In this document: piece by piece, positions 3,285 to 61,336 of the stretch | Layout: every line of letters starts with the position of its first letter | Numbering within the stretch: position 1 is the first letter of the stretch | Virus record (IMG/VR): IMGVR_UViG_3300037493_005685 | Span: 31,499 to 95,498 of that record | Source: a virus | Strand: one strand, 5' to 3' | Length of the DNA stretch: 64,000 bases | Translations under genes and position numbers: made by a program | Notes under the pieces: generated by a model | The model's database searches: none | What the model was told of the DNA's origin: nothing | Seen by the model: only the letters and a program-made list of their open reading frames with translations

Positions 3285-3659
3285 TCAAGGAATAACTGCA
3301 GCAGTCTCTCCATCATCTTTACCGAGTAAAATACGTACAGCCTCTTCACAAGTATTCGAGACTTTGTGAGCTTCTTCGTACTGCATATGCAAGCGCTTCA
3401 TCATCTCACGCTCTGAGAGCTCATGGACGATGATAGCGGAGAGATCCTTGCCAGACAAGCCAGCCTCAATCCAAATCTCATCTTCGGGGATGAACGGATA
3501 GATGTAATGATGCCCGCCCACTGAGAAGCTTTGGTCGTGAGCTCTAGCTTGGGCACCATCGATGGCGAGAATGCTTACAGAATCGAGAGGGCCTGTTAAG
3601 CCCTTAAGACTGCTAACAGCGTCGTGGACTACTGCGAGGGATGCTTGTTTATTATCCAT
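3285..3659 (-). CDS. putative metal-binding HExxE (zincin-like) protein starting with KQA motif
   Basis: MDNKQAS start overlapping upstream stop; GGHHYIYPFIPEDEIWIE...HELSER...YEEAH. Confidence 0.6.
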   Translation of the reverse strand: MDNKQASLAVVHDAVSSLKGLTGPLDSVSILAIDGAQARAHDQSFSVGGHHYIYPFIPEDEIWIEAGLSGKDLSAIIVHELSEREMMKRLHMQYEEAHKVSNTCEEAVRILLGKDDGETAAVIP

Positions 3660-4110
3660 TGTAGGTAAAATTACCAATCAAACCACCCGTAAGAGCGCCA
3701 CCTGCTGCGCCAGCTAAGCCACCTGCGCCAGCTCCGCGAACACGCGACATACCAAGCGGCTTAGACAGTGCAAGACCACCAAGAACACCCGCACCAGCAC
3801 CAATAGGTAGTCCCCACGTAAGGCCCTTAAGCTGGCCTCTATAACCGCGAGCTATCTCAGCGTCAAACTCAGCCTTAGTCATGCCAGTCTGTTGCTTGAG
3901 ATACCTATCCTCGAACTCGGCGTCTGACATCGCTATCTTCTCGAGCACAGTGTCAGCAATCTCAGCAGCAGTTTTGTTCATTTTATGCTCCGGTAACACC
4001 TTGATGTCAGGCGTATGCTCAGCCCAACGCTCTGCTGTGCCTCTGGGCAGCTCACCTTTTGATTCAGCCGAGAACATAAAGCGCTGTTGGGCTTTGGATT
4101 TGAATGGCAT
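3652..4110 (-). CDS. putative internal virion protein with Gly-zipper segments
   Basis: Start reassigned to MPFKSKAQQRF (TATACT-N6-ATG); KTAAEIADTVLEKIA motif; GxxxG-rich C-terminus. Confidence 0.7.
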   Translation of the reverse strand: MPFKSKAQQRFMFSAESKGELPRGTAERWAEHTPDIKVLPEHKMNKTAAEIADTVLEKIAMSDAEFEDRYLKQQTGMTKAEFDAEIARGYRGQLKGLTWGLPIGAGAGVLGGLALSKPLGMSRVRGAGAGGLAGAAGGALTGGLIGNFTYNG

Positions 4111-4260
4111 GCAACAAGTATAGCAAAAAGAAAGACGGCCCCCTAAACCTAAAAACTTTGGTGGTGCTGCTGGTCTTGGCCTAGGGGGCCTGAGGTGTGA
4201 CAAGTACGAATATACGTATTCTGCGTCACAATGCAAGCAACTTATTTACGCCGGAAAGGT

Positions 4261-5445
4261 TCAGTCCATGTGATGGGCGAGGTAGGTGCCCACAGGTCTG
4301 CCGAGATAGGAGCCCATAACGTAGCCAGAGGGACCACCAAGCGTGAGCCCTGCAAGGCCACCAACGGCGTCACCGGCAAGACTACCTGCAAGAGTGCGCC
4401 CTAGCTGGTTTAGATGTTCACCAGGGTTAGCCGTAGCAGCTGAGCCTATTGAAGCACCAACAGGGTGAAGCATGGAAGCACCGTAGAGCAGCCCTTGGCG
4501 TACGTCGCTGTAGCCATCTGCAGCTGTCTCTGGGATATGCTCGTGGTGGGGGTAGTCCATGTAGCTGTACTCTTCGCTGGTCTTGGTTCCGTGGTAGGCA
4601 TCCACGATGGGCTGGGAGGCAAGCCACGCAGCAGAAGATGTAGCTAAAGGAACACCAGCGCGCACGCCTAAGTCCATGCCCTTGCTCGCTAAGCCCTTGA
4701 TACCCTTCTCAGCAGCCCAAGGCATCTTGAAGCGGTTGTGCAGCAATAGACCTGTACCGAGACCTACGCCGCCAGATAGCAAGCCAGGAATCAGTGTGGC
4801 GGTAGCTGGCTGACGACGAGCTAAGAAGTCACGAACGCCTTCTTCGCCGTCACGCTTATAAATCTCTTCCACAGCCGGACGAGATGTAACCGCTGATTGT
4901 CCGGCACCAAAAAGAGAGCCAGAAGCAGCTCCCATGTAAGCGCCTCCTGCACCAGCAAGCAAGCCTGCCTTAGGAGACTTCATTAGTATACCTAGAGGAA
5001 TGCCCGCAATACCACCACCTGTAACAGCTGAGCCCAAAGCATTCGAGAGTACTTTATAGCGCCTATCAGCAAGCACAGCTTCCTGCTGCAGGTCATGCTC
5101 AACAGGCACTTCAGCAGTCTTGGCACACAGCTCAGATAAGAACGTAGATATCTTGTCCAGGTCCATAGAAGCTAGCGCCTTATCCTCTGGTTTAGGAACG
5201 ACAGGCGCTCGCTTCAACTTCTCTTCTTGCTGCTGGCTCGTGTTGATGCCAGAGAGACAAGTAGGCCCAGAGATAGGAGGGAAGTTGGCGCCGCCAGCGG
5301 TCTTCTGCGCATCCTCAGCAGCCCACTGGGCCTCACGGTCTCGCTTAGTCTTCTCACGAAGCTTAGCCATGAAGAGCTGGTCTACGCCTTCTTCACCTAG
5401 TTCAGAGATGATGCGCCCGATTTGTCGTGAGGAGCTTGGGTCCAT
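4261..5445 (-). CDS. putative internal virion polyprotein, Gly-zipper modules separated by KTA/KTS
   Basis: 394 aa; leaderless TATACT-N6-ATG; several GxxxG hydrophobic hairpins. Confidence 0.7.
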   Translation of the reverse strand: MDPSSSRQIGRIISELGEEGVDQLFMAKLREKTKRDREAQWAAEDAQKTAGGANFPPISGPTCLSGINTSQQQEEKLKRAPVVPKPEDKALASMDLDKISTFLSELCAKTAEVPVEHDLQQEAVLADRRYKVLSNALGSAVTGGGIAGIPLGILMKSPKAGLLAGAGGAYMGAASGSLFGAGQSAVTSRPAVEEIYKRDGEEGVRDFLARRQPATATLIPGLLSGGVGLGTGLLLHNRFKMPWAAEKGIKGLASKGMDLGVRAGVPLATSSAAWLASQPIVDAYHGTKTSEEYSYMDYPHHEHIPETAADGYSDVRQGLLYGASMLHPVGASIGSAATANPGEHLNQLGRTLAGSLAGDAVGGLAGLTLGGPSGYVMGSYLGRPVGTYLAHHMD

Positions 5446-5459
5446 GAGGGAAGTATAGC

Positions 5460-5990
5460 CTAATGGCTATCAGAACGTAACCAACCAGGAAGACCAGCGA
5501 GGCCACCAAGCGCACCGCCAGCAGCCATACCCATACCGGCACCAACAAGGCCACCACCAACGCGACCATGCCAGGGTTTAATGCCGTGCTCAGCCGCCTG
5601 GGCCAACAGTTTAGGCTCTTGTTTACCGATGGCACTAATAGCGGAATTACTACCTAAAGCGCCAGCAACACCGCCCAGACCAGCACCAATACCTGCGCCA
5701 TAAGCTGTGCCGCGCCCAGTGCTCTCAGGCGTTGCAAGGGCACCGATACCACCGCCAAGAGCAGTAGCTCCTAGACCAGCAGCTAAAGCAGCGCGTCCAT
5801 GCCCTCTAGAGGCAAGAGGAGCAGCTGCTAAGCTGCCTACCAAGCCACCTGCCGCAGTACCGCCAATGGCACCAGAATAACGGTCACCCGCTGAAGGGTC
5901 ACGCTCAGCAGCTTGCTTGGTGAGGCCCAGCTCTTCAAGGGCAACTTTGCACCCGTATTCATACGCCTGCTTAATCATTTCGTCGTGCAT
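5460..5990 (-). CDS. putative internal virion Gly-zipper protein with N-terminal tag
   Basis: KQAYEYGCKVALEELGLTKQA followed by Gly/Ala-rich helices; GAGGA SD. Confidence 0.75.
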   Translation of the reverse strand: MHDEMIKQAYEYGCKVALEELGLTKQAAERDPSAGDRYSGAIGGTAAGGLVGSLAAAPLASRGHGRAALAAGLGATALGGGIGALATPESTGRGTAYGAGIGAGLGGVAGALGSNSAISAIGKQEPKLLAQAAEHGIKPWHGRVGGGLVGAGMGMAAGGALGGLAGLPGWLRSDSH

Positions 5991-6062
5991 CTTCTTCCTC
6001 GTAGATGGAGATGTGTAGTCTCTTTGACCACTGAGAAAGTTTAGGACGTGGGAGGGGGAGGG

Positions 6063-11598: not shown

Positions 11599-13683
11599 AT
11601 GCAAAGACATCAATCCCACAGAGACGACGAGCCGTTTGACCTCTTTACGAAGTTGGACCCTGAGAATCCTTTGCACGTGTGGAATGACGCTGCCAACGAC
11701 ACGACAGAGGGTCGTCAGCGTTTATTGATAGACGGCCCTTACGTTAAGCGCGCCTATGACTTTCAGGGAAACCTGCGTCGTTTCTTTAAGCCCAACCCTT
11801 ACAAGAAGATGCCCCTTGAGGCTCTGAGCGACATTAAGCCTTCCAGCTTCGAGGGCAAGCACCCTGACGACTTCTTGTTCTATAACAAGGCTCTTAACAA
11901 GAACATCGATGCTCTTAGTGAAGAGGACCTAGCTGCCTTCTATCACGGGCACAAGCAAAAGGTGCAGGCTGCCCAAGAAGCCGTTGACCAAGAGGCCGCT
12001 GAGCAAGCCGCAGCTGAAGAGGCAAGGGTACAGGCCCTCCTTCAAGAGCACATCACCAAGTCCAACAAGGCCACTCACAACGTTGGCACCGATGTGATGC
12101 TTGGCACAGGTGGTCTTGGTGCAGGTCTTTACGGCGGAAAGAAGGTCTATGACACTCTGAGAGAGAAGGGTGCGGCTGCTCCTCCCACTCCTACCGAGGC
12201 TGCTCTCTTCTTGAAAGACGCCATCAAGAAGCTGACGTTGTTTCATCCTGAGAAGTTAACAAGCCCAAGGGACCTAGATTCGCTTGGAGCCCATGTACGA
12301 GAGTACGTTGCAGCTCTTCCTCCTGAGGTTAAAGCTCAGATTAACCATCTTCACGGTGACTTTGAGGCTGGGCATGCTACTGCGCATGACATCTTAAAGG
12401 GCAACATTCCGGCTCCACCCATTAAGGCTGCTCCCCCACAACCCCAACAGCCCAAACAACATAACGACGCTAGCAGCTCATCCACCTCTAGCGACGCCGC
12501 CCCCTCCAAATCCAAGTGGCCCTTGTACACAGTTTTAGGTGTAGGCGGTGCTGGGCTTCTTGGGGGTGCGGGGGCTGTTGGGCATCACCTATACAAAGAA
12601 CGTGAGGCTGAGAATATGTTAAACAAAGAATCCGAGGAGCAACCCCTCAGCGAAGAGCAAATACAGACCCTACGCCTTATGTCTCTCACCCCAGAGCAGA
12701 GGGCTATGTACATGCAGGTTAACCCTGCTGGAGTACCAAAGATGGCAACCAATATGACGCCCGAGCATCTTAAGTCTCTTAGAGACGTGGATAAGAAGCA
12801 GGACAAGACCAAGTACCTACCCAAGAAGGTGCGGGGCATTCGGGAGGAATCCAAAGAAGCAGGCGTACGTGACTTCGTAAGCCGCCACCTAGGGCGCAAG
12901 AGCGAAGAGTTTATCCAAGGCCGCAAGGCTCTTGATGTGGCTGCCAAGGCTAAGAACGAAGAAGACCTCTTGGCCGCTTATGCCAAGAAGCGCGGTCTGC
13001 ATGTGGACGAGAAGGGTGTGATTGGTAACCCACCTGCCCCTAAGGAGCCAGGGTTCCTACAACGTAACAAATGGCCGCTAGGTATGGCGGCTGCTGGAGC
13101 TGGAGGTCTGTATATGCTCAACCAACAAGACAAGATGAGTTCCTACGACGAAACCCTATGCCGCCTGGGCCTAGCCAAGCTGGCTGCCAAGATGCCGCCG
13201 CCTATTCCATTGAAGGCAAAGGGGCCTGCCGCCTCGAAGGGCAAGCCCTTCTTCACTCCTTCTCAGTCCACCGCCGCTAAGAAGATGAGTGGTCCTGCTC
13301 CGGCTAAAGCTCCTTGGGAAGAAGCCCAAGATGTAAAGCTGTCCTTTGATAGGGGTTACGTTGACGCTCTTGCTTCTCTTAAGCTCGCTGGCGCTATGGC
13401 ACAGATGCTAAAGAAGGCGCCTATCCATAGTGGCGCAGCTCCCAAAGCGTATGCTGAAGGCTTTGGTGTGAGAGCTGCTAAGCCGGTGCAAGGGCCAGGA
13501 GCTGTGGATAAGGTTAAGGGTGCTGTGAGCGGTGCTGCTGATAAGGCTAAGAGCACCTGGGACAAGATGCCTACCTGGGGTAAGGGCATGGCTGCAGGTG
13601 GAGCGGGCCTAGGGCTGTTGGGAGCGGGTGCTGGCGTAGGCTCTGCTATGTCTTCTCCTGCTCCGGTTATCGTTAACCATTAA
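11599..13683 (+). CDS. putative internal virion polyprotein with several KxA/KxS-delimited modules
   Basis: 694 aa; TAGACT-N6-ATG; four Gly-rich hydrophobic segments; KMSSYDETLCRLGLAKLA and KLSFDRGYVDALASLKLA motifs. Confidence 0.75.
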   Translation: MQRHQSHRDDEPFDLFTKLDPENPLHVWNDAANDTTEGRQRLLIDGPYVKRAYDFQGNLRRFFKPNPYKKMPLEALSDIKPSSFEGKHPDDFLFYNKALNKNIDALSEEDLAAFYHGHKQKVQAAQEAVDQEAAEQAAAEEARVQALLQEHITKSNKATHNVGTDVMLGTGGLGAGLYGGKKVYDTLREKGAAAPPTPTEAALFLKDAIKKLTLFHPEKLTSPRDLDSLGAHVREYVAALPPEVKAQINHLHGDFEAGHATAHDILKGNIPAPPIKAAPPQPQQPKQHNDASSSSTSSDAAPSKSKWPLYTVLGVGGAGLLGGAGAVGHHLYKEREAENMLNKESEEQPLSEEQIQTLRLMSLTPEQRAMYMQVNPAGVPKMATNMTPEHLKSLRDVDKKQDKTKYLPKKVRGIREESKEAGVRDFVSRHLGRKSEEFIQGRKALDVAAKAKNEEDLLAAYAKKRGLHVDEKGVIGNPPAPKEPGFLQRNKWPLGMAAAGAGGLYMLNQQDKMSSYDETLCRLGLAKLAAKMPPPIPLKAKGPAASKGKPFFTPSQSTAAKKMSGPAPAKAPWEEAQDVKLSFDRGYVDALASLKLAGAMAQMLKKAPIHSGAAPKAYAEGFGVRAAKPVQGPGAVDKVKGAVSGAADKAKSTWDKMPTWGKGMAAGGAGLGLLGAGAGVGSAMSSPAPVIVNH

Positions 13684-13686
13684 AGG

Positions 13687-14196
13687 ATGACTACCATGAC
13701 ACCCAACAACGTAAAACAGGCATACGAGCTCGGTTACAACGACGTGCTCGAGTCGCTCCATCTCAAAGAAGCTGGCTTCTTCATGAACATGGCTGGTAAG
13801 GCCCGAGATCTAGGGTCTCGTGCAATGGGCGCTAGCCCTGGACATGTGGCAGCCCGTAGAACAGCTATTAACGAAGGCCGGGCAGCTGTCCAAGGGGCAA
13901 AAGAGACGAGTCAGCTTGCTGCCACCAAGGGCAAGTTCGAGCAGAAGGTACAGAAGATTCAGGGCGGTGCTCCCACTACTCCCCCAGCTGCTGGTGCAAC
14001 GCCTACCCCGGCTGCTGGCGCTGAAGGCGCTGCCACTGGTGCGGCAGACAAAGCCAAGGGTTGGTGGGCGCAGCGTTCTCCGTGGGCTAAGGCAGGTATT
14101 GGAGCTGCTGTGGGTCTGCCCATTGCTGGTGGCCTCTACGCCGCTGGTGGTATGAATCCTCCCCGGCCTCAGCAGTATCCTCCGCAGCAGCAGTAA
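13687..14196 (+). CDS. putative internal virion protein with N-terminal tag and C-terminal TM
   Basis: KQAYELGYNDVLESLHLKEA; C-terminal Gly-rich hydrophobic helix. Confidence 0.75.
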   Translation: MTTMTPNNVKQAYELGYNDVLESLHLKEAGFFMNMAGKARDLGSRAMGASPGHVAARRTAINEGRAAVQGAKETSQLAATKGKFEQKVQKIQGGAPTTPPAAGATPTPAAGAEGAATGAADKAKGWWAQRSPWAKAGIGAAVGLPIAGGLYAAGGMNPPRPQQYPPQQQ

Positions 14197-16105: not shown

Positions 16106-17251
16106 ATGCAAAAGACAGCCCAAGACCTAGCCCAAGTAGTCTTTGAGAAGCTAGCCGTCTCCCGTTGGCGGGAAGCTATATATAGTGGGGAGTTGAACAC
16201 GCCTGAAGCCGAGAAACTAAAGGCGTACATGGGTAAAGACCCAACACAGTACTCTGAAGGTCTTAGGCAGGGTACAATTAACCGCTTAGCTGACCGGCAT
16301 ATGAGCTATGATGAACATGAGCGCTTTACCCCGAGAGAACATCTACGAAATATAAAGAATAAATATATACCAAGTGGTGCTTTACCTAAGAATTATTCTT
16401 CGACTGAGCTGGTTACAGGTAATGTAAATGTCGCTCACCCCGAAGCTAAGAATCTAGGTTATATGGGAGGGCTTAAGGATAATCCAGAGCACCACAAGCA
16501 GCTTGCTAATCTAATTACAGGACATGAAGGACGAGAATCGGACTTCTCGTTTAAGAATTTAGATCACCGAGCCAACAAGTTATGGAATCGGTCACCTAGA
16601 AATGAACCCATCTTCACGGACACTGAAGCCAAGAACCGAATGTCACCTCGTGACTATGCTAAAACACAGTTACGTGAGGACATAGCTAGGCAAGAAGTAA
16701 TTAGTAAATTTAAGCGAAGGCATTTTAAGGAGACCTCTAGAGACTTTGCTCCAACGCCAAAGACATTACTGCCTAGAGAGGAGAGAGCTGCAACTTATAA
16801 AGCGTTGCAACACGCTTCAAACATGGAGTACGGTTACGGCGCTCCTAGAGCAGAAGTGATGAAGAACTTAGAGAACACCGTTGTAAAGCCTTTGATACGT
16901 AGAGGAGCTCATTTTGACCCTGCTGTTTTGATAGACGAGGCACGGAACGCACGTATGATGTCGCCAGAAGTAGCCAAAGCTATGGAGAATGTACGCAAGG
17001 GTACAGGAGAACAATCCTTAGTACGTAGTGTAACTAACACGCCCGTTGGAGCAGACACCTATTTACCAGGTAAAGATGCTAAGTCGATTGCAAATAAGGT
17101 GATGGACGAGAGTAGTAACAGGATGAAAGCTCATGCGAGCAAAATTACAGGTAAAGTCGAAGAAAATTTAACTAAGCTTGACCCGTGGGTACAGCGTGGA
17201 AGGTGGGCAGTCGACAAACTAAAGCGCGGAGTAGGACTACTCAAGAGGTAA
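16106..17251 (+). CDS. putative internal virion protein with N-terminal tag
   Basis: TACAAT-N6-ATG; MQKTAQDLAQVVFEKLA; 381 aa. Confidence 0.7.
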   Translation: MQKTAQDLAQVVFEKLAVSRWREAIYSGELNTPEAEKLKAYMGKDPTQYSEGLRQGTINRLADRHMSYDEHERFTPREHLRNIKNKYIPSGALPKNYSSTELVTGNVNVAHPEAKNLGYMGGLKDNPEHHKQLANLITGHEGRESDFSFKNLDHRANKLWNRSPRNEPIFTDTEAKNRMSPRDYAKTQLREDIARQEVISKFKRRHFKETSRDFAPTPKTLLPREERAATYKALQHASNMEYGYGAPRAEVMKNLENTVVKPLIRRGAHFDPAVLIDEARNARMMSPEVAKAMENVRKGTGEQSLVRSVTNTPVGADTYLPGKDAKSIANKVMDESSNRMKAHASKITGKVEENLTKLDPWVQRGRWAVDKLKRGVGLLKR

Positions 17252-17277: not shown

Positions 17278-17370
17278 TCAGTGCCCCTCCTTTTTCTTCT
17301 TCAGCCAACTTAAAATACTTCGAACAGTACCTACGAATAGCTTGGCCCATATAGATGGTTCCAGAATCAT
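17278..17370 (-). CDS. 30-aa cationic amphipathic peptide (MILEPSIWAKLFVGTVRSILSWLKKKKEGH)
   Basis: AAGGAGGT SD, GGTATAAG motif at 17391-17398, terminator after stop. Confidence 0.6.
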   Translation of the reverse strand: MILEPSIWAKLFVGTVRSILSWLKKKKEGH

Positions 17371-17435
17371 GTGCTTTACCTCCTTGTTTACTTATACCTC
17401 AATACTACCCTTGGTATTATTCCTACAATTTTCGC

Positions 17436-48635: not shown

Positions 48636-50171
48636 TTAAGCGCCAATACAGACCCGGAGACTCTTCGCTGTCACGAGGGTACCAGCTATCGCGGTGTTGA
48701 ATCCACCTACAGCTGGCGCCATTGCAGGACCAGAAGGACCCCACGCCGTTGAGTGCGTATGGGAATCAAGGAGCGTGATGAGGCTCTGCATAATAGCCAG
48801 CCACTTTGTGTACAGCATGGCGTAGTCCGTAGGCGGATTAGTAGGAGTCCCAGCAGCCCAAGGTCCGGGAACAGTGCAGCCAAGCCCAATAGAGTTCGGG
48901 AGCAGCGTGTTCAAAGAGATGGCACACTGCGTTGCTGGCATCATGGGGTTGGAGCCCAGCGTTATCATCCCGTTGTAGGCGTAGATGTTAAACCCAGGAA
49001 GCGCTGTGGGCACCGAGCCATCTCGAGGGTCTCCAACATGGAAGCTAGCACTCCCATTAACCATGTGCATCTCGTAAGAAACATTCGTAGGTAGCGCCGT
49101 TAAGGGAGAGCCACCGGAAATAATTTGCTTAAAGACACCGCCAATATTTACAATCTTGTCTCGGTTAATGAGCTCTACCGAGTCTACTCCAACAGTCTTT
49201 GAGCTAGTCCCTGACACCTCAGAAGTTTCGCTACCCTCTACCGTGTTGTAAGTGTTACTGGCAACAAACTGTTCCACGTCGCCTTCGTACCGGTAAATCT
49301 GGTTACCGCCTACAGCGTGCATAGAGCTACCACATGTGATGGTACTAAAGCCCTTAAGCCCGAAGAACTCTATGTTGCCATCACTTGTGAACTTGGCCTG
49401 AGACATAAGCTTGTTATCTATGGACGACACCCGCATGTCGAACATGTTACCCACATCGCCTATGTCCACACTGAAGGTATAGTTCTTAAGGGGTCCACCA
49501 TTCTGAGTCAGCTGGTCCGACGCCCCCTTAAAGGACATGAAATTTCTACCGTTGTTGTTCCCTACCTTAAGAACCCCAAAGGCGTTTAGGTTCTCGTAGT
49601 TCTCAGACACAATGCGCACCAAGTTGTGGTTTCCTGATGCGAGTATCTGCGCGCATTCTGAGCCGTAAATCTGGGCCAGTTTACCGCGTAACACACCAAC
49701 GTAAGAACCGTCAGGACACACCATGGCCATGTCCCCAGGTTGCATGCCCTTTGGGGTTGTTGGCGTTGTGGCGTCTGCTCCAGTGTCTGAACGAGAAGTA
49801 GTTCTTCCTGTATCCAGGGTAGAAAACACAGGCGCATTAGGCGTAGGTACGCCTGCGGTGCCAAGAGCATGAACCCCAGTAATGCAAGGATGCCCAAGGC
49901 TAAAGTCTAGCTCAACTTTTACAGAGCCATCGATGACAGCATGGAAACCACCCATCATTCTAGCCGGTACACCGCTGTAGTACCTGGGGCCTTTGGTGTT
50001 ACCCACCGCCTGGCCTTCTGCGGCTACCATATAAGTGTTCGTCTTGGCGTCGTAGCGGATAACACGCCCGTATGCCTTGCCCGTAGTGTACAAGGGCATG
50101 GACGGTCCTGAGCCGTTAAGAAGGGCCTGCTGTCTGGGGGATACTATTGGGAAAGGGAATCTACGTGGCAT
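48636..50171 (-). CDS. baseplate central spike (gpV/gp5/VgrG-like)
   Basis: N-terminal OB-like region, beta-helix-type VGG/VEG repeats, C-terminal LDSHTH apex motif; TATGCT-N6-ATG. Confidence 0.75.
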   Translation of the reverse strand: MPRRFPFPIVSPRQQALLNGSGPSMPLYTTGKAYGRVIRYDAKTNTYMVAAEGQAVGNTKGPRYYSGVPARMMGGFHAVIDGSVKVELDFSLGHPCITGVHALGTAGVPTPNAPVFSTLDTGRTTSRSDTGADATTPTTPKGMQPGDMAMVCPDGSYVGVLRGKLAQIYGSECAQILASGNHNLVRIVSENYENLNAFGVLKVGNNNGRNFMSFKGASDQLTQNGGPLKNYTFSVDIGDVGNMFDMRVSSIDNKLMSQAKFTSDGNIEFFGLKGFSTITCGSSMHAVGGNQIYRYEGDVEQFVASNTYNTVEGSETSEVSGTSSKTVGVDSVELINRDKIVNIGGVFKQIISGGSPLTALPTNVSYEMHMVNGSASFHVGDPRDGSVPTALPGFNIYAYNGMITLGSNPMMPATQCAISLNTLLPNSIGLGCTVPGPWAAGTPTNPPTDYAMLYTKWLAIMQSLITLLDSHTHSTAWGPSGPAMAPAVGGFNTAIAGTLVTAKSLRVCIGA

Positions 50172-51008: not shown

Positions 51009-51284
51009 TTAGGCTGTTGCGCCAGTAACGGCTTTGTTTACACCAGCATCTAATGCGCCCGCACCGAGTTGCGCTGGCACGCCGCCTGCGACATCCATCG
51101 TTTTACCGGCTACGCCAGTGAATTTACGCTGGCCTGCTTTGGCTATTTGCTGCCCACCCCAGCGGACACCCTTCATAGCGAGCTGGCCAGCAGCGCCTAC
51201 GAAAGCCCGTTTCTCAAGACCGAGAGCTACGAGAACACTCTCGTAGCCCTGGTCGTAAGAAAGCTTTATAAGCTGCTGACTCAT
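51009..51284 (-). CDS. small tagged putative internal virion protein between sheath and tube genes
   Basis: KLSYDQGYESVLVALGLEKRA; TGATG coupling to sheath stop. Confidence 0.7.
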   Translation of the reverse strand: MSQQLIKLSYDQGYESVLVALGLEKRAFVGAAGQLAMKGVRWGGQQIAKAGQRKFTGVAGKTMDVAGGVPAQLGAGALDAGVNKAVTGATA

Positions 51285-53995
51285 CAGGCCACCAAGTGCA
51301 GACCGATAACGTTGAGGGTCATCGGCTGAACCACGCTGATGTACGCTTCGATACGGTCATCGCTAATGTCGCTCTGCTCAACAGAGTCAACAGAAGACGA
51401 GATGAGAGGCGAACCAATCTTCGGAACGTACCTGGACCTCAGGTTTGTGCCGACAGAGTCACAGGCAGACTTGATAGTCCGGATGGTGTTGTCGTTGATG
51501 TTCCACGTACCAATGAACGGCCGCAGCGTATCGAGATACGTCATCGAGATGAAGTCGAGATTCTTCACGGCCATGTACTCGCCCGTCTCCAGTGAAACCA
51601 CATCAGTAGTGACCTCATGGATAGTATAGGGGAGGCCGGAAGGGGTATCCTGTACGAACACGTAGATACCGCCATTGGACAGGTCAGTGAGCTGCTCCTC
51701 GGTGAAGTAGTCACTCGAGCCATATACACGAGAGATTCCGTTAATCGGGAAGTTCGTGAAGCCCTGCTGAGAAGGCTGACCCGCAGTCTGGCCACCGACG
51801 CAGCAGCTCAGGTAGTAACCGGGCTGGTGACCCGCAGCAGTCGGCACGGTAGAAACAGCGCGAACCAAGCTACCATCGGTCAGACCATCCACGTCTACCG
51901 AGGACGGGTAGGCAAGGAGCAAGCGCTTTGAAGCGAAGCCCTGCGCAACCGACAGCATGTTGGTAACCTGCTCCGACTTCGTCATGCTGCGCACGACGCG
52001 CATGAACACCTGACCGCCGGTAACGGCGCGGTCAGTCGCGGCAGTGCGCTTAGTGAGATGCGGAAGCTCGTTCGCGACAGTCGAAGAGTCCGTACCCTCG
52101 TTCACAACGCGGAGACGCGTGGTGCTCTCCACGAGCGAAACAACCCAAGAGTCGTAGGTGGTCCAGAGGTTGGTCTCTGGGTCCGAGGGAATCTGGATGA
52201 CATCACCGGGGATGACATCACTGAAGTCCGCAGTCGGCACCGAGATGATGTTGTAGAGGTCGTCGAGCGCACTGTTCGCCAGAGAGAACGTGGTGCCCGT
52301 ACCAGGATTGGTGATGGGGCTCGTAACAAGCCGGGACACACCAGCCGGGCTCTTGACGTCGAAAGTGCTGGACGCATTCAGCGTGGTGTAAGCCGACGTA
52401 AGAAGCTCGTCCACTTCCAAGACTAAAGCACTGTTAACGTGGGCCACAGTCAGGGTAGCGGTACCCGTGGTGTGCACGATTGTCACGATATCGCCAGGAA
52501 GAACTGAGGTGGTGAAGTCCGCAGTCTGCCCCGCGTCTTTCGTGAGGGTCAGCGTATGCAGCGTTCCCGGAGAGCTGCTAACCTGCACGCTGGTGGTACC
52601 GCCACCAATCACAGGCACAACGTCCATACTCGTCACGAGCTCAACCGCGCCAGCGACGTGCCGGAACTTCTGCTTGATGCCGTGGTCCAGAACGTAGTTC
52701 GGGTCGGAGTAGCTGGTTGTCATAACGTTCAACACACCCAGGATGGTCGTGTTGTAGGTCAGAGGAACCAGCGAGTAGAAGTCTTTGTCCGTGCTCACCG
52801 TATCCAGGAAGTCCTGGTAGCCAGCGAGGTCATCGGACGCCAGGCCGTAAGCGCGGACTTTCGTCGTGGTGTTGGCCTTCGCCAGAGACACACCGACATG
52901 CAGAGGGTTACGGGCATCGTACTTACCGAGGTAGGTAGTCAGGTCCGTCTGCGTCTCGATGTCCACAATGCGCTGCAGGTCCTGGCGCAGGGCCAAGTAC
53001 TGCATGTAAACCTTGGCGTAGCTGATGCGCTTCGACACCGGGGCACCAGCGATTGTCACAGGCGCCGTCAGCGCGCCAGCAACCGTAGTCGCCTTGGTCT
53101 CGGAGTCCACGGTGACAGAACCGGCAGGCACTTCGTAGTCGTTGAGCTGCCGCTCGACGCGCCAGAGACGGTTACCTACACTGGAGCTATTCGCAGCAGT
53201 GAAGTCAGCCGTCGTGCGCAGGTAGCACTCATCAGCCAGGCCCGTAACGCTTGTCGGGCCATCAATCACCGTGCCGTTGGCACTAGTAATCGTGACCGTG
53301 GCATCGTTAACGGCGCCAACCCAGGCAGAAGTACCGGTGGATTCCACTTCGATACGCTGCGCCACGGAGGAGCCGTTCTCGACGTACTTCTTCTTGACCG
53401 TGTACGTGCCGTTACGCGGGACAGCTGCGGCGTCACCTGTGATGGTGATGATGTCGCCTGCCTGCACACCGAGCGTGTTGAAGTTCGGCCCGGCAGCAGA
53501 GTACAACACGAACACGAGCTCTTTGACCGTCATCACATAGTCAGAAGCACCATCGTTCTTTACGATGAGCGTGTCGCCAGCTTGGACACCGCGCTCTTGC
53601 ATCGTATCCACACCAGCGCCTGGCGTAGCAGGACGGAAGATGTTGTCATTCGCCCAGTACGTTGCGAGGTTAGCGGAATCACTACCGGCGATGACTTCAC
53701 TCAAGATGACGCGGTAATCGTCGAAGAAGATTTTCGCGCTTGCGTCTTCAAGAATCGCACCGGCCTCAAGATTCGGCGGAGTAACGATACTCAAAGCGGT
53801 GACAGTAGCCACTGGATTGGCGGCGTTAACCGCGCTACCGTACGTCGTGGAATAGCAGTCTGTCTTGTCGTCCAGGTAGTCGAGAATTTGCTTACACGGA
53901 CCAACCACGAGGACATTCAAGTCAGCGATATCAGGTGAAACGGTGAACTCCCGGTACTCCTGAAAAACGATCACATTGGGTCGAGTGAGGGCCAT
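51284..53995 (-). CDS. tail sheath protein
   Basis: 903 aa; N-terminal RPNVIVFQEY; sheath-like C-terminal domain (GFTNFPI...FIGTWNIN...PMTLNVIGLHLV). Confidence 0.85.
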   Translation of the reverse strand: MALTRPNVIVFQEYREFTVSPDIADLNVLVVGPCKQILDYLDDKTDCYSTTYGSAVNAANPVATVTALSIVTPPNLEAGAILEDASAKIFFDDYRVILSEVIAGSDSANLATYWANDNIFRPATPGAGVDTMQERGVQAGDTLIVKNDGASDYVMTVKELVFVLYSAAGPNFNTLGVQAGDIITITGDAAAVPRNGTYTVKKKYVENGSSVAQRIEVESTGTSAWVGAVNDATVTITSANGTVIDGPTSVTGLADECYLRTTADFTAANSSSVGNRLWRVERQLNDYEVPAGSVTVDSETKATTVAGALTAPVTIAGAPVSKRISYAKVYMQYLALRQDLQRIVDIETQTDLTTYLGKYDARNPLHVGVSLAKANTTTKVRAYGLASDDLAGYQDFLDTVSTDKDFYSLVPLTYNTTILGVLNVMTTSYSDPNYVLDHGIKQKFRHVAGAVELVTSMDVVPVIGGGTTSVQVSSSPGTLHTLTLTKDAGQTADFTTSVLPGDIVTIVHTTGTATLTVAHVNSALVLEVDELLTSAYTTLNASSTFDVKSPAGVSRLVTSPITNPGTGTTFSLANSALDDLYNIISVPTADFSDVIPGDVIQIPSDPETNLWTTYDSWVVSLVESTTRLRVVNEGTDSSTVANELPHLTKRTAATDRAVTGGQVFMRVVRSMTKSEQVTNMLSVAQGFASKRLLLAYPSSVDVDGLTDGSLVRAVSTVPTAAGHQPGYYLSCCVGGQTAGQPSQQGFTNFPINGISRVYGSSDYFTEEQLTDLSNGGIYVFVQDTPSGLPYTIHEVTTDVVSLETGEYMAVKNLDFISMTYLDTLRPFIGTWNINDNTIRTIKSACDSVGTNLRSRYVPKIGSPLISSSVDSVEQSDISDDRIEAYISVVQPMTLNVIGLHLVA

Positions 53996-56268: not shown

Positions 56269-56277
56269 AGTAACCTC

Positions 56278-57479: not shown

Positions 57480-57493
57480 CCCTCACCTCTTAT

Positions 57494-57763: not shown

Positions 57764-57830
57764 GAGAAACGTCCTTCCTCACGAGAACAATCCAACTACT
57801 TAAATAGTAGGCTAGTTGGGTAAGGCGAGA

Positions 57831-58226: not shown

Positions 58227-58318
58227 CTGCAGCTCCTTTAGGGGGAAGAGAGAAAGCCTACCGAATAGGGGAGCAAAAGAGAGAGACTACTCGGCAGGCT
58301 TCTCAGGTCCTCAGTTCA

Positions 58319-59239
58319 TCACGGGAAGATGATCTGCTGGATGGACAGCGAGTTGCCGATGCCCAGACCCAGGGCTTCATACGTCCAGAACATGATGACG
58401 TCTGCCTTCTGCTCGATGTACAGAGTCGCATCTTGCAGCAGGTAGAAGTTGCCGAGGAAGTTGTTCGGGCTCTGGGGCGCGAAGATGAACGCGTGGTTGA
58501 TCGGATAGACCTGGGGTTTCACAGTCGTCACGACCGGGAGGCCCCACAGCTTCTGCGAGGATTCGATACCCTCGTCGAAGTGGCGCTTGGCGATCTCATG
58601 ACCAACGGACGTCGCCGGGAGGTCCAGGGCGTCAAGATACTTGGCCTTCGCCATGAGCATCTTGCCGACCGGCCTACGACGCTCGAGCAGGGCGCGCATG
58701 CCCAGCTTGAAGGTGCCGCTCTGGAAGCCGCCGTTAGTCTGCTGAACGCTCGGGTTCGCAGTCGTGATGGCGAGGATGGTCTCGTAGAATTTGCGGTCTT
58801 CTTCGTCCGCCATGTCCTTCACGGAGTTGTCCGACAGAATCTGCCGGATGTCGCTCGTGTAGGTCATGAGCTCGAACTTCGACTTCGTGAACCGCTGGCT
58901 CTCGATTTTGCCGAACTTCACGGCATAGCGCTTGCCACGGAACCACGTGCGCTGACCGGTGCCCTGGAAGTTCACGAAGGTCGCCACCGAGTCGGGCTCC
59001 TTGTCGATGATCTTCACCGGCTGGTCGCTGTCGAGCGTGCGGTCGATCTGGTCTTCGGTGATGCCCTGAGGAACGATGATCTCACGGACAGCCGCTTCCT
59101 GGCGGAGTTTCTCGCGGATAAACGCGGAACCTTCGACCTGGGCTTCCTTTGACATCCCGTTCTCGATTTTGCGGATGAAGTTGCTATTGAGGAACTGCGC
59201 AGTGATTTGCGGGTTCTCAATCTGGTAGGTGCTGCTCAT
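58319..59239 (-). CDS. major capsid protein (HK97-fold, putative)
   Basis: 306 aa, strong codon bias, position after protease/scaffold/decoration genes. Confidence 0.8.
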   Translation of the reverse strand: MSSTYQIENPQITAQFLNSNFIRKIENGMSKEAQVEGSAFIREKLRQEAAVREIIVPQGITEDQIDRTLDSDQPVKIIDKEPDSVATFVNFQGTGQRTWFRGKRYAVKFGKIESQRFTKSKFELMTYTSDIRQILSDNSVKDMADEEDRKFYETILAITTANPSVQQTNGGFQSGTFKLGMRALLERRRPVGKMLMAKAKYLDALDLPATSVGHEIAKRHFDEGIESSQKLWGLPVVTTVKPQVYPINHAFIFAPQSPNNFLGNFYLLQDATLYIEQKADVIMFWTYEALGLGIGNSLSIQQIIFP

Positions 59240-59279
59240 CGTATTTCCTCTTTCCTAGTGAAAAGGTTACTTACCCGGT

Positions 59280-59789
59280 TTACGGGTGGCCCATAGAGAT
59301 GCCCTGCGGAATGATGACGTCCAACACGAGGTTGGTGGCATCGAGACCGTTGGGACCAACAACTCCGTAACAGGATTCGCCCTGAGCCGCAGCGCGGAAG
59401 GAGCCGCCCGTGGTGTTATCACAGGTGAGGATGTCACCGATGGTGTACGACGTGGAGACGTAGTACGGGGCTTTGATACGAACGCCGCCCTGGATGAACG
59501 TGCACTTGCCGGTGAGGCTACCGTCGTAGTCGGCGTTGCCGTCCACGGCGATGAACATCAGGCAAGGAGCATTCGTGAGGGAGTCGTCGTTGTCGGCGAC
59601 GATGGCTTTGCCCGTGTGAGCAGCGTCCATCACGCAAATCATGCCCGCCTGGATGGAGCCAGCACGCGGCGTACCCTCGGAATCCGGACCCAGAGCGCCG
59701 TAGACATCGAGGGTCAGGCCCAGCGAAGCCAGCGCCGCAGGATGCGGGTCACAAGTGACGATGTCGAATTTCGAAGCAAGAAGAGTCAT
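59280..59789 (-). CDS. head decoration/capsid cement protein (putative)
   Basis: 169 aa just upstream of capsid gene; YTIGDILT beta-tulip-like motif. Confidence 0.7.
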   Translation of the reverse strand: MTLLASKFDIVTCDPHPAALASLGLTLDVYGALGPDSEGTPRAGSIQAGMICVMDAAHTGKAIVADNDDSLTNAPCLMFIAVDGNADYDGSLTGKCTFIQGGVRIKAPYYVSTSYTIGDILTCDNTTGGSFRAAAQGESCYGVVGPNGLDATNLVLDVIIPQGISMGHP

Positions 59790-59824
59790 CGTTTTGTCCT
59801 TTCAACCTACCTGCCCGCTTTGGG

Positions 59825-60160
59825 TCAGGACATTAGCCAGTTTGTGAACCGTTCGTCAGCTCTGCCCTCATTGGACGAAGCCGTCTTCACGGTGTCATTT
59901 CCTGCGGGGCCACCCATGTTATCCACACGAGTTGAACCGGCAATCTTTTCGATCAGGCTCGCAACCTCGGGGCCAGCAGACGCGAGTTTATGAAGAACAG
60001 ACGCGTCAATGTTCTCCCCCAAGAAGGACGACAGCTTCTCTTGAAGATGTGCTGCGTCCTTTTCGTGAGCTTCTTTGACCCGGCTCTCTTGCTCACGGCT
60101 GACCTCGTCGAAGTACGACGCCGCCTTTTCGAGAACATCTGCTACGAGGTGCTTATCCAT
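59825..60160 (-). CDS. small scaffold-like protein rich in KxA/KxS
   Basis: EKAA, EKLS, HKLA, EKIA, VKTA. Confidence 0.7.
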   Translation of the reverse strand: MDKHLVADVLEKAASYFDEVSREQESRVKEAHEKDAAHLQEKLSSFLGENIDASVLHKLASAGPEVASLIEKIAGSTRVDNMGGPAGNDTVKTASSNEGRADERFTNWLMS

Positions 60161-60171
60161 ATTTCAGTCCT

Positions 60172-60345
60172 TTACTCTCCAACCGTCTCACTGGAAAGTA
60201 TACGCTTGAGTTCGGAAAGTCCGCGAGCAGCAACTAAAATTTTTGCGATTTTTTCTGTCTTCGCTTTTTCAGTTGTCGCTGCTCTGCCGCGTAAATCAGC
60301 GGCCACTTTCCGGAGCTCATCTGCAAGCTGCTTCGGGTTCATCAT
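60172..60345 (-). CDS. 57-aa scaffold-like protein (MMNPKQLADELRKVAADL...)
   Basis: Below ORF cutoff; fills the gap; RKVA, EKIA. Confidence 0.6.
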   Translation of the reverse strand: MMNPKQLADELRKVAADLRGRAATTEKAKTEKIAKILVAARGLSELKRILSSETVGE

Positions 60346-60347
60346 TG

Positions 60348-60575
60348 TTAACCCCTTCCGAAGCGGCTCGTGAAGTCGAGCACGTCATCGAGAGTTACAC
60401 GCTCATCGTCCGAGTTACGGAGCTCCTCAGCTAATTTGCGAAGGAGACGACCGGTGTCGGTCATTGAGCTCTCGACAGCTGCGCGCTTCTCCATCGCAAC
60501 CTTCTGCTGTTCAGCAGAAGCTTGACGGTGGATGTTCGCTACCAGCGTGTCAATGTTTGGTAGACTTGGCCGCAT
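60348..60575 (-). CDS. small scaffold-like protein
   Basis: QKVAMEKRA, RKLA. Confidence 0.65.
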   Translation of the reverse strand: MRPSLPNIDTLVANIHRQASAEQQKVAMEKRAAVESSMTDTGRLLRKLAEELRNSDDERVTLDDVLDFTSRFGRG

Positions 60576-60714
60576 CTTTGTCGTCCTTCTTCATCGGCTT
60601 CTCACAACATCTGAACTCTTCGGGTTTCTTTACGCCGTAAGAGCTACTCAGTGTGCTAGCCGCTTGCTTGAAGAGCATCTCGTATTCTGTCCGCGTATTG
60701 GCGTCAAAGAACAT
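60550..60714 (-). CDS. small protein with KQA motif
   Basis: GAGGAAGG SD before MFFDAN; LFKQAA. Confidence 0.5.
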   Translation of the reverse strand: MFFDANTRTEYEMLFKQAASTLSSSYGVKKPEEFRCCEKPMKKDDKDAAKSTKH

Positions 60715-60733
60715 TGTCACACCTTCCTCGACG

Positions 60734-61336
60734 TTACTGCGCGTTGTTTTGAGAGATGAGGACTTCCACTTCCTGGGCACCCTTCATGAACTCTTGGGCG
60801 GCGGCGTTACGAACGTCTTCGAGAGCGGACGCCTGACCGGCGTTGTATTGCTCGGCAGCGACCTTCTGCATCGTGTCGGCATAGCCCTGCTCGGCAGCGA
60901 CCTTCTGCATCACATCGATGTAGCCCTGCTCGGCAGCGACCTTCTGCATCGTATCGATGTAGCCTTGCTCTGCGGCTTGCTTCTGCATCAGGTCCTCGTT
61001 GCTGGTATTCTGCTGCGACGCAACCTTCTGGTTCTGTGAAGCCCAAGCTTCGCCAGCGGCGTCAGCAAACGCGCGGCCACAGTTACGAGCATGGATGACT
61101 TCGGCTGTCTTCTCGTCTTCAGCCAGTCTCTGGGCTTCTTTGATGAGGGCTTCGACCGGGTCCGCCCCGTGAACGGAAGCGGTCTTCTCGTTCTGGACAG
61201 CCTGCTTCAGAGTGGCTTCAAGGGACTCCTTAGCGGTCTCGGCAGCGGACTTAACCGGAGCCTGGTTAGTGTTGTCACTGGCGGTCTTCTCCGAATCAGA
61301 GGAGATGATACCTTGGAGCAATTGGCTGTAATTCAT
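60734..61336 (-). CDS. scaffolding protein (putative)
   Basis: 200 aa, Ala/Glu/Gln helical; EKTA x3; 13-aa repeats; follows protease. Confidence 0.75.
   Translation of the reverse strand: MNYSQLLQGIISSDSEKTASDNTNQAPVKSAAETAKESLEATLKQAVQNEKTASVHGADPVEALIKEAQRLAEDEKTAEVIHARNCGRAFADAAGEAWASQNQKVASQQNTSNEDLMQKQAAEQGYIDTMQKVAAEQGYIDVMQKVAAEQGYADTMQKVAAEQYNAGQASALEDVRNAAAQEFMKGAQEVEVLISQNNAQ
60849..60988 (-). repeat. 39-nt coding tandem repeat (MQKVAAEQGYxDx), about 3.5 copies
   Basis: Direct repeats visible in DNA and protein. Confidence 0.9.

Follow-up and report, generated by a model that had tools for sequence, protein, structure and literature searches.

A candidate capsid-loading tag resembling the scaffold repeat in an uncultured phage distantly related to Arash

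The 64,000-nucleotide stretch of DNA analyzed here (the window) comes from an uncultured phage, of which it forms the right-hand 64 kb of a 95.5-kb fragment. Relatives of the phage measure 144-179 kb, and Salmonella phage Arash is a distant relation of the clade. Why should peptides that resemble the repeat unit of a scaffolding protein recur on otherwise unrelated proteins of this phage? The original prediction took them to be a portable tag that loads cargo into the prohead and is then cut off, and all of the peptides it quoted were found in the sequence at the positions it gave.

The prohead protease and K-x-A sites of the head block

Judged by its modeled fold, the ORF at 61404-63998 (minus strand), beside the scaffold gene, is the prohead protease, of the T4 gp21/herpesvirus-assemblin fold and split by an intein. 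In family alignments, a Zn-ribbon (C-x-x-C-G-N...Y-C-D-H) and a middle domain make up the C-extein (61404-62930, minus strand) together with a C-terminal extension whose hydrophobic helices are rich in Gly. The intein and its LAGLIDADG endonuclease (62931-63998, minus strand) sit between the protease sequences ...Y-D-V and C-x-I-C-G-N and end in S-H-N|C; the Pfam matches to Intein_splicing and LAGLIDADG_3 are both under the gathering score, and BLAST aligns the split ORF to an intein-free orthologue over residues 357-864 only. The start of the intein and the protease N-extein fall past the contig end. The fold search used the N-domain of the orthologue from the related genome G3 (AF2 model, pLDDT 71), which was compared by VIA-align with ~48,000 PDB representative chains. 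T4 gp21 (5jbl) came first, with a Z score of 8.7 and an rmsd of 3.0 over 124 residues; the proteases of VZV and HCMV scored 7.6 and 5.1, and the next unrelated chain 4.8. The Foldseek top list likewise consisted of herpesvirus proteases and gp21. The family conserves the motifs N-R-N-G-D-x-F, H-H-x-N-K-D-P, and S-M-G, with His115 and Ser166 invariant, as well as an E-K-x-[AS]-G site that reads Y-A-S-K-T-A-G here.

The 200-amino-acid scaffolding protein (60734-61336, minus strand) is encoded between the protease and the major capsid protein, and 23 orthologues have the same architecture. It is almost wholly alpha-helical (AF2 helices 31-52, 60-137, 140-150, and 152-199; mean pLDDT 74), and most of its invariant or near-invariant columns belong to K-x-A pairs (K17/A19, K66/A68, K119/A121, and K158/A160). 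It contains 3.5 tandem 13-residue repeats, M-Q-K-V-A-A-E-Q-G-Y-x-D-x (60849-60988, minus strand), each made of a hydrophobic-Q-K-x-A site and then a tag-like half, and the scaffold alignment defines a conserved C-terminal block, K-V-A-A-E-Q-Y-x-x-G-x-x-x-A-L-E-D-V...E-F-x-K-G-A (60776-60871, minus strand).

Such sites recur in the head block. Among conserved i/i+2 pairs there, K-x-A leads by a wide margin, at 39/469 (8.3%) against 19/3097 (0.6%) elsewhere, an over-representation of ~13-fold that is partly post hoc, as the block boundaries were set after the K-x-A-rich families had been seen. Neither the reverse pair A-x-K (three in the head block) nor E-x-A or K-x-L is over-represented. Arash, a cultured phage whose gp222 is a homologue of the protease (E 1.4e-72), serves as an independent check; its head block holds 1.16 hydrophobic-x-K-x-A sites per 100 amino acids and the comparison set 0.11, a ~10-fold difference. 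Because K-x-S was not enriched among the conserved head-block pairs, the rule is K-x-A and not K-x-A/S as had been proposed. The head-block site logo is hydrophobic (-2), E/T/Q (-1), K, x, A, S/A, with Ser following Ala in 26%.

The 306-amino-acid, HK97-fold major capsid protein (58319-59239, minus strand; profile match to 6wkk, the Gp27 major capsid protein, E 2e-10) has a candidate maturation site near its N-terminus, K31-E-A33, of which K31 and A33 are invariant and which is also present in Arash gp226. The 111-amino-acid protein at 59825-60160 (minus strand) contains six K-x-A (1.0 expected), five of them conserved across genomes, and is a candidate core or scaffold-like protein that would be cut into short peptides. 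A 75-amino-acid protein of the head block (60348-60575, minus strand) has two hydrophobic-x-K-x-A sites.

Two variants of the tag and their likeness to the scaffold

Variant 1 of the tag spans ~23 residues, K-[QL]-[AS]-[YF]-[ED]-x-G-Y-x-D-x-L-x-x-L-G-L-[TE]-K-x-A, and is carried by five otherwise unrelated window proteins. In leave-one-out HMM searches of 161 proteins, each of the five was the top non-training protein, and three of five scored at least as high as the best of 20 shuffled proteomes. After the tags were masked, these proteins had no significant similarity to each other, with the single exception of 13687-14196, which matched the last module of the 694-amino-acid protein (E 0.002).

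Two instances lie on the minus strand. The tag at 5910-5978 forms residues 5-27 of a 176-amino-acid protein (5460-5990), is followed by L-T-K-Q-A-A-E, and precedes three Gly/Ala-rich hydrophobic segments; that at 51204-51272 forms residues 5-27 of a 91-amino-acid protein (51009-51284) and is followed by L-E-K-R-A. The start of the latter gene overlaps the stop of a 903-amino-acid tail-module gene, distant from the head genes; its orthologues in the related genomes L003-L005, G1, and G2 keep the tag, and tag instances in relatives are at the extreme N-terminus. On the plus strand, 13708-13776 encodes residues 8-30 of a 169-amino-acid protein (13687-14196) with a single Gly-rich hydrophobic segment close to its C-terminus, and 13330-13398 encodes an internal tag, residues 578-600, that opens the last module of the 694-amino-acid protein (11599-13683). 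The fifth tag (17436-17504, plus strand) is the N-terminus of a 215-amino-acid protein that lacks any hydrophobic segment; within ORF 17355-18083, the ATG at 17436 is likely to be the true start, and the 14 bases 5' of it are identical to those 5' of the ATG at 16106. The 694-amino-acid protein also contains KMSSYDETLCRLGLAKLA (13132-13185, plus strand), a half-tag Y-D-E-T-L-x-R-L-G-L-A-K-L-A that fits only the C-terminal half of the tag and the K-x-A site; it was not reported by the tag HMM and is not a full member.

Variant 2, M-x-K-T-[AS]-x-[EDQ]-x-[AG]-x-x-V-[LF]-[EQ]-K-x-A, is rare, with five strict matches in 1.6 million six-frame residues, all exactly two residues past a Met. Two are in the window. 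One (16106-16156, plus strand) is the N-terminus of a 381-amino-acid protein and amounts to two hydrophobic-x-K-x-A sites 12 residues apart (M-Q-K-T-A ... F-E-K-L-A); the other (3931-3981, minus strand; M-N-K-T-A ... L-E-K-I-A) is inside the protein 3652-4236, past a conserved K-S-K-A-Q-Q-R-F domain and ahead of a Gly-rich hydrophobic helix. The second variant thus held for these two only: KISTFLSELCAKTA (4261-5445) fits neither motif, and neither does FDILVKMA (42001), which is just one hydrophobic-x-K-x-A site. The window therefore contains seven tagged genes plus the scaffold, and not the more than 10 originally counted. Hydrophobic-x-K-x-A occurs 0.51 times per 100 amino acids in variant-1 and 0.70 times in variant-2 proteins; the head block has 0.85, and the remaining proteins of this genome have 0.10.

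The bracketing of the tag by K-x-A was borne out in position: K-x-A is at -6 from the central Gly in 10/18 tags, and K-x-[AS] is at +10 to +14 in 11/18, where ~1 is expected, but several of the tags examined have no downstream K-x-A (17436; G3 14778). The head-block enrichment also agrees with K-x-A being a head-protease motif, but the K-x-A at the tag start has its hydrophobic residue at -1, whereas conserved head-block sites have it at -2 with E/T/Q at -1.

The similarity between tag and scaffold is weak in absolute terms, yet consistent. The tag HMM gives the scaffold only ~4 bits (range 2-8), yet 22/23 scaffold orthologues fall within the top 5% of their own shuffles. When the tag profile was compared with 66 families by hhalign, the scaffold ranked second (score 24.2, E 5.9e-5; next unrelated family 14.2), the match covering 17 aligned columns at scaffold residues 117-133; with the leave-one-out result, this upholds the claim of a scaffold-like peptide on unrelated proteins. 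The C-terminal block, which in relatives includes A-Y-E-Q-G-Y-N-D-Q-L, has Y(-3), G(0), A(+4), L(+5), and [LV](+8) in common with the tag. The tag is also portable, as had been claimed, for in relatives it occurs on a LigD-like primase-polymerase/phosphoesterase, where E-K-V-A-S directly precedes a C-terminal tag. Major capsid proteins of the tag-bearing genomes are only 55-75% identical, and their N-terminal tags are kept while the remaining protein diverges past recognition.

A load-then-cut signal and its alternatives

On the sequence evidence, we lean towards the tag being a capsid signal of the T4 load-then-cut type, in which both the tag and the cut-site rule would be new. The core of the head module would be the gp21/assemblin-fold protease, an elongated helical scaffold partly built of 13-residue repeats, and the HK97-fold capsid protein. 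The protease would cut at [hydrophobic]-[E/T/Q]-K-x-A, probably after Ala and often before Ser or Ala. Its substrates would be the scaffold and several small core proteins, as well as the protease's own chain and the N-terminus of the capsid protein. The ~23-residue helical tag, kin to the scaffold repeat and C-terminal block, would draw other proteins into the assembling prohead, either through co-assembly with the scaffold or by attaching to the scaffold's own binding partner, and the adjoining K-x-A would let the protease release the tag such that mature cargo stays in the head, perhaps to be ejected. Candidate cargo would be mostly small Gly-zipper proteins of membrane-active appearance, and in relatives also the LigD-like enzyme.

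It is possible, though rather unlikely, that the tag is instead a docking or oligomerization helix of another assembly, its scaffold likeness being convergent helical composition and K-x-A perhaps remaining a protease site in true head proteins. Gly/Ala-rich hydrophobic segments on four of the seven tagged window proteins would suit the insertion or clustering of Gly-zipper proteins in membranes (holin-, spanin-, or exclusion-like), and the translational coupling of one tagged gene to the 903-amino-acid tail-module gene would suit tape-measure or tail-lumen association. Four tagged genes, moreover, lie a long way from the head genes in a cluster of their own (5-18 kb), with their own promoter-like TAnnnT elements 5' of the ATG and no Shine-Dalgarno sites. 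The low HMM scores of the scaffold fit such a helix too, but the scaffold is the sole unrelated family of the 66 to stand out against the tag profile. Soluble proteins, namely the LigD-like enzyme and the 215-amino-acid protein, are also tagged, most tags adjoin a K-x-A site of the head-block type, and the gene for the Gly-zipper protein gp224 of Arash lies in the head block, its product having been detected in the virion preparation. The AF2 scaffold model does count against the tag reading, in that a continuous helix, and not a coat-binding helix-turn-helix, runs through the conserved Gly.

Less probable still is that the tag is chiefly a recognition or exosite element for the protease, marking proteins for activation or destruction anywhere without driving encapsidation. 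K-x-A does bracket the tag, variant 2 is simply a pair of sites, and each scaffold repeat opens with one, but the conserved core Y-[ED]-x-G-Y-x-D-x-L-x-x-L-G-L is absent from the head-block site logo and the majority of head-block sites lack it; furthermore, the known prohead proteases of T4 and SPN3US act within the prohead, where substrates must arrive first (PMC3012670, PMC10052503). That the peptides were left behind by duplication among small, fast-evolving paralogues and share no present function, and that K-x-A is a product of Lys/Ala-rich helices, seems very improbable. The paralogy that links 13687-14196, outside the tag, to the last module of the 694-amino-acid protein would be so explained, and Ala is indeed higher in head-block proteins (11.3% versus 8.2%), but composition alone would not favor K-x-A over the other three pairs, nor repeat that enrichment in Arash, and the tag persists in diverged genomes and on an enzyme family.

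Comparison with known systems

In T4, a capsid-targeting sequence carries a variety of internal proteins into the scaffolding core (PMC3012670); it is described on IPI-III and Alt, from which the prohead protease gp21 removes it (Mullaney & Black 1996, as cited in PMC10052503; PMC3012670). Here, too, a short conserved peptide is present on diverse proteins and adjoins a scaffold-type site, the gene for a gp21-fold protease adjoins that for the scaffold, and the scaffold is densely set with such sites, as are small core proteins. The differences are that the tag is ~23 residues long rather than ~10, is detectably similar to its own scaffold repeat, and can occupy the C-terminal side of an enzyme; that the candidate site is hydrophobic-x-K-x-A rather than L/I-x-E; and that the candidate cargo is mostly Gly-zipper hydrophobic proteins. 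SPN3US gp245, which removes 20-24-residue propeptides at A-x-E (PMC10052503), and phiKZ gp175 offer a parallel from the head maturation of giant phages: they act on many head and ejection proteins, cut 20-24-residue or long N-terminal propeptides at a three-residue motif (PMC10052503, PMC7411985), and have a self-cleaved C-terminal part. However, they cut after Glu in A-x-E, in contrast to the candidate K-x-A here, and a shared scaffold-like targeting tag is undescribed for those phages.

The likeness to herpesvirus assemblin is one of fold and of a conserved motif that ends in Ala, with Ser often next; identity is only 11-15%, and the phage enzyme differs by a Zn-ribbon insertion and by its long, hydrophobic C-terminal extension. 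Assemblin, the maturational protease, cleaves at (V/L/I)-x-A|S, and Lys at P3, the place it would take if the phage enzyme cuts after Ala, is not known as a herpesvirus feature. In the C-terminal coat-binding domain of the P22 scaffold, the C-terminal tail of the HK97 protease, and encapsulin cargo-loading peptides, a short portable peptide attaches to the inner side of an HK97-fold shell, or to the scaffold of that shell, and carries a passenger in. The likeness to the tag lies in the mode of loading proposed for it; the P22 and encapsulin peptides are not known to be removed at a dedicated adjoining site, and the HK97 tail is a single-protein solution.

A scan of 75 kb of Arash found no tag. 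The 116 proteins listed in its virion proteome, many of them covered at or near 100%, neither reveal nor rule out processing. A further likeness to the giant phages is in RNA polymerase subunits, which members of the clade encode themselves and which the Arash virion preparation contained (PMC10585845).

A shared peptide and its carriers

The core of the variant-1 tag spans 23 columns, K-[QL]-[AS]-[YF]-[ED]-x-G-[Y]-x-[D]-x-L-x-x-L-G-L-[TE]-K-x-A, and, as in the T4 type of tag, it is a short conserved peptide borne by otherwise unrelated proteins, usually at the N-terminus. Five copies are present in the window. Four are N-terminal, in the proteins encoded at 5460-5990(-), 13687-14196(+), and 51009-51284(-), and in the one whose most likely start is the ATG at 17436; the fifth is internal, at residues 578-600 of the 694 amino acid protein encoded at 11599-13683. 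The genome's opening 31 kb contain no copy. In leave-one-out profile tests, every variant-1 instance was the best non-training protein among 161. The candidate cargo is unusual, mostly small proteins with Gly/Ala-rich hydrophobic helices. In five related genomes the same tag opens small proteins at their very N-terminus. In G1-G4 (G1 to G5 are uncultured relatives from IMG/VR), a LigD-like primase-polymerase/phosphoesterase carries it in its C-terminal tail, with E-K-V-A-S immediately before it. Weaker tag-like matches (1-4 bits) in G5, on a pyrophosphatase, an ATP-grasp protein, and a second phosphoesterase, are leads only. Note that assembling the tag set included a subjective step: an iterative HMM with strict inclusion stalled at 7 sequences, and the set was widened by choosing N-terminal instances off the ranked list. 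When the tag region was searched by words against 5.8 billion proteins, only the query protein itself came back. Pfam DUF6127 matched only the 176 amino acid protein, at 18.8 bits (below the gathering cut-off of 27), and none of the other 22 tag proteins; because this sub-threshold lead was not reproduced, it was dropped as an identity for the tagged proteins.

The second variant is rare, always starts two residues after a Met, and consists of two hydrophobic-x-K-x-A sites spaced 12 residues apart; its copies in the window are at 16106 and 3931-3981. Every peptide quoted in the original prediction was found in the sequence, and the shared tag that it proposed is real. Its figure of more than 10 cargo genes, by contrast, comes down to seven genes plus the scaffold, because the peptides cited in 4261-5445 and at 42001 fit neither tag model, and the one at 13132-13185 is a half-tag rather than a full one. 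Residues 43-85 of the protein encoded at 3652-4236(-) form a conserved N-terminal domain beginning P-F-K-S-K-A-Q-Q-R-F, which is 62-65% identical in G1 and G3 and is resembled by S-P-A-Q-R-A-A-V-W at the start of the LigD-like protein of G3. G3 as a genome also yields a Pfam DUF5661 match.

The K-x-A motif and the prohead protease

Clustering the ORFs of six genomes gave 66 families with members in four or more of them, and conserved residue pairs at positions i and i+2 were counted. Within the contiguous head block, which runs from the gene for a 111 amino acid protein through the scaffold and protease to the genes upstream of the protease, 39 of 469 conserved pairs are K-x-A (8.3%), against 19 of 3097 (0.6%) in all other families. 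No other pair in the block exceeds 9, and A-x-K, the reverse, is seen 3 times. Neither A-x-E (8) nor L-x-E (9) is enriched among these head-block pairs, and no site rule of the after-Glu kind (L/I-x-E in T4; A/S/G-x-E in phiKZ and SPN3US) was found. The site had been predicted as K-x-A/S; the Ala form is dominant among conserved head-block pairs, but K-x-S is not enriched among them. In the site logo, a hydrophobic residue (-2) and E, T, or Q (-1) precede the Lys, which is followed by V/T/L/I, the Ala, and then S (26%) or A. The invariant columns of the scaffold are chiefly four K-x-A pairs, the 111 amino acid protein (59825-60160(-)) has six, and K31-E-A33 is invariant in the major capsid protein (MCP, 58319-59239(-)), whose HK97 fold was confirmed (6wkk, E 2e-10).

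Plain K-T-A tripeptides are slightly more frequent than expected across the genome and less frequent than expected in G3; the signal emerges only once conservation and a hydrophobic residue at -2 are taken into account. Per 100 amino acids of this genome, hydrophobic-x-K-x-A occurs 0.85 times in the head block, 0.70 times in variant-2 proteins, and 0.51 times in variant-1 proteins, with 0.14 in other claimed cargo and 0.10 in the rest of the genome. Of 18 tags, 11 have a K-x-[AS] between +10 and +14 counted from the central Gly, where about one would be expected by chance, and the sites after the tags have the head-block context (L-T-K-Q-A, L-E-K-R-A, F-T-K-E-A, and similar). The match between the K-x-A adjoining the tags and the sites of the scaffold, core proteins, and MCP thus holds at the sequence level, and all are candidate cut sites. 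The protein encoded at 42001-42546(+) has a head-block-type site without a tag near its N-terminus (L-V-K-M-A-G, residues 8-12), as well as two Gly-rich hydrophobic helices, and may have a short propeptide.

Because the block boundaries were set after the first K-x-A list had been seen, a replicate was sought in Salmonella phage Arash (OQ632216.1), the only cultured relative found (MCP identity 42%) and an orphan myovirus of 181 kb (PMC10585845). In Arash, hydrophobic-x-K-x-A reaches 1.16 per 100 amino acids across gp218-gp226 and 0.11 over the 19,245 remaining scanned residues, and the K-x-A site of the MCP is kept, as K-E-A near residue 28 of gp226. Arash gp222 (146737-148212), annotated only as "structural protein", is a homologue of the prohead protease, with E 1.4e-72 to the N-domain profile of the clade. 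With many hydrophobic-x-K-x-A sites packed into them, Arash gp220, gp223, and gp225 resemble scaffold or core proteins; no homologue of the tag or scaffold was found in the 75 kb scanned of the 181-kb genome. The Gly-zipper protein gp224, from a head-block gene, was detected in the Arash virion preparation, but this preparation is so inclusive (116 proteins, many covered completely or nearly so; PMC10585845) that it does not discriminate processed from unprocessed proteins.

The ORF at 61404-63761 had been guessed from its size and position to be the portal; this was rejected because the alignment shows protease motifs and the fold search gives gp21/assemblin. The family alignment contains the motifs N-R-N-G-D-x-F, R-H-H-x-N-K-D-P, and S-M-G-T, an invariant His and an invariant Ser, and a Cys-rich insert. 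An AF2 model (pLDDT 71) of the N-domain of the intein-free G3 orthologue served as the query for fold searches. Among about 48,000 PDB representative chains, the best VIA-align match was T4 gp21 (5jbl; Z 8.7, rmsd 3.0, 124 aligned residues), with the VZV and HCMV proteases at Z 7.6 and 5.1, respectively, and the next unrelated chain at Z 4.8; the Foldseek list was mostly herpesvirus proteases, gp21 among them. Searched against PDB sequences, the protease profile returned nothing relevant. On the N-domain model of the orthologue, then, the head module encodes a protease of the gp21/assemblin fold. The window itself holds only the C-extein and part of an intein, the N-extein being off the contig. 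The intein (62931-63998(-)), which has a LAGLIDADG homing-endonuclease domain, splits the protease between Y-D-V and C-x-I-C-G-N, about ten residues past the catalytic S-M-G motif, and ends in S-H-N directly before the first Cys of C-x-I-C-G-N. Longer orthologues of the protease in relatives (L005, 1060 amino acids; L020, 921 amino acids) may carry inteins too. The C-terminal 250 residues of the protease (61404-62930(-)) lie beyond a conserved E-K-x-[AS]-G (Y-A-S-K-T-A-G in the window) and make up a long extension whose hydrophobic helices are rich in Gly; this extension may be a self-released, membrane-active part. The 169 amino acid ORF immediately upstream of the MCP (59280-59789(-)) was rejected as the protease, its PDB profile matches being weak and only to an antifreeze-protein repeat and TRIM proteins; it is 92% identical to its G1 counterpart, a conservation equal to that of the MCP, and more likely may be a head decoration protein.

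The predicted scaffold and the reading of the tag

The gene order is protease, a 200 amino acid ORF (60734-61336(-)), three small ORFs, and MCP. The 200 amino acid ORF fits the general profile of a scaffolding protein (a gene lying between protease/portal and capsid, and an elongated, alpha-helical, acidic product with no enzymatic domain), and its sequence and model make it the predicted scaffold; it has no Pfam or PHROG family above threshold. Its AF2 model (pTM 0.31) is nearly all helix and compatible with an elongated shape. The 23 orthologues follow one common plan: E-K-T-A-S at the N-terminus, then a conserved helix in the centre, K-x-A-A-x-x-G-Y-x-D repeats in varying number, and a C-terminal block that is again conserved. 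The tag profile scores scaffolds at 2-8 bits only, and 22 of the 23 are in the top 5% of their own shuffles. When the tag was compared profile to profile with the 66 conserved families, the scaffold ranked second (score 24.2, E 5.9e-5), behind the LigD-like family, a genuine tag carrier, and ahead of a family scoring 14.2. The resemblance between tag and scaffold sequences is modest but real.

The most economical account of the tag and K-x-A together would be a T4-like scheme of loading and then cutting. Tags related to the scaffold unit would carry passengers into the prohead, where the protease would cut at hydrophobic-x-K-x-A: scaffold and core proteins would be broken down, the MCP would be trimmed, and the cargo would be released. 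In T4, a capsid-targeting sequence loads diverse internal proteins into the scaffolding core (PMC3012670); the scheme here, predicted from sequence, would work alike, but with candidate K-x-A in place of L/I-x-E. The 20-24-residue propeptides of SPN3US gp245 are removed at A-x-E (PMC10052503), and the SPN3US/phiKZ rule, A/S/G-x-E, likewise differs from the candidate here. The proposed scaffold mimicry and the candidate K-x-A rule would set the window's system apart from analogous tag-plus-site systems. Herpesvirus maturation proteases cleave between Ala and Ser, sites that a K-x-A rule would recall if the cut falls after Ala.

In its full form, the tag would be a portable copy of the scaffold's assembly unit, whose carriers co-polymerise with the scaffold and are freed in the head by an assemblin-like protease cutting after Ala in hydrophobic-x-K-x-A. 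We hold this reading as possible but tentative. The scheme of loading and cutting as a whole is limited by the weak similarity of tag to scaffold, by some tags having no downstream K-x-A site, by one tagged gene being coupled to a tail-module gene, and by four tagged genes forming a separate cluster, with TAnnnT a few bases before the ATG and no Shine-Dalgarno sites. The tail-module coupling would suit a docking helix for membrane or tail assembly, as would the hydrophobic helices of the cargo; set beside the head-block context of the sites that follow the tags, such a role is doubtful. Those same sites are what a pure protease-recognition element would supply, but the conserved core of the tag is absent from the head-block site logo, and this role is unlikely. 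That the shared peptides are remnants of paralogy is very improbable, since the tag also sits on the LigD-like enzyme family and the K-x-A enrichment recurs in Arash. With their tags masked, the tagged proteins are mutually unrelated, one pair excepted.

Were the scaffold-copy reading true, the tag and site would form a readable, transferable protein-packaging code that packs proteins destined for injection, both DNA enzymes and Gly-zipper proteins active on membranes. The injected cargo of a large phage clade that is almost without annotation, including its Gly-zipper proteins and LigD-like primase-polymerase, could in that case be read from sequence alone. Mimicry of the scaffold repeat would then be a clue to how capsid-targeting peptides work. 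K-x-A would stand beside L/I-x-E and A/S/G-x-E as a third cleavage rule for phage head proteases of the gp21/assemblin fold; it ends in Ala like the herpesvirus rule, and a P1-Ala rule would give the maturation proteases of phages and herpesviruses a shared specificity in addition to their shared fold. Because Arash is cultured and has the same protease and the same motif enrichment, the cleavage rule is directly testable.

The candidate cargo cluster and the wider genome

A -10-like TAnnnT (TACAAT, TATACT, TAGACT, TATGCT) ends about 7 nt before the ATGs at 16106, 17436, 4110, 5445, 11599, 41320, and 50171, with no Shine-Dalgarno sequence; those at 16106 and 17436 share 14 identical upstream bases. 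Genes of the head and tail operons are Shine-Dalgarno-led, unlike the cargo cluster, and the arrangement suggests that the transcripts of the cluster are leaderless.

The IMG/VR relatives of this phage are 144-179 kb, and similar contigs of ~90 kb are rated ~50% complete by CheckV. The 95,498-bp contig, of which the window is positions 31,499-95,498, is a fragment; relative to G1 and G3, a stretch of ~80 kb that separates the protease gene from the tail-fibre region is missing. In the relatives this stretch encodes a terminase (GpA type), pieces of RNA polymerase beta-prime, a sigma factor, ribonucleotide reductase, reverse transcriptase, and further tagged genes. PHROGs and Pfam matched almost nothing: they gave no structural or protease family for the cited proteins, for any of the 96 window ORFs, or for 150 ORFs of G3, a complete relative. 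The 903 amino acid ORF at 51284-53995(-) is a candidate tape measure or sheath, and the 511 amino acid ORF at 48636-50171(-) has weak matches to the T4 gp5 C-terminus/baseplate hub (PHROG 430, E 0.003; Pfam Gp5_trimer_C, E 0.009).
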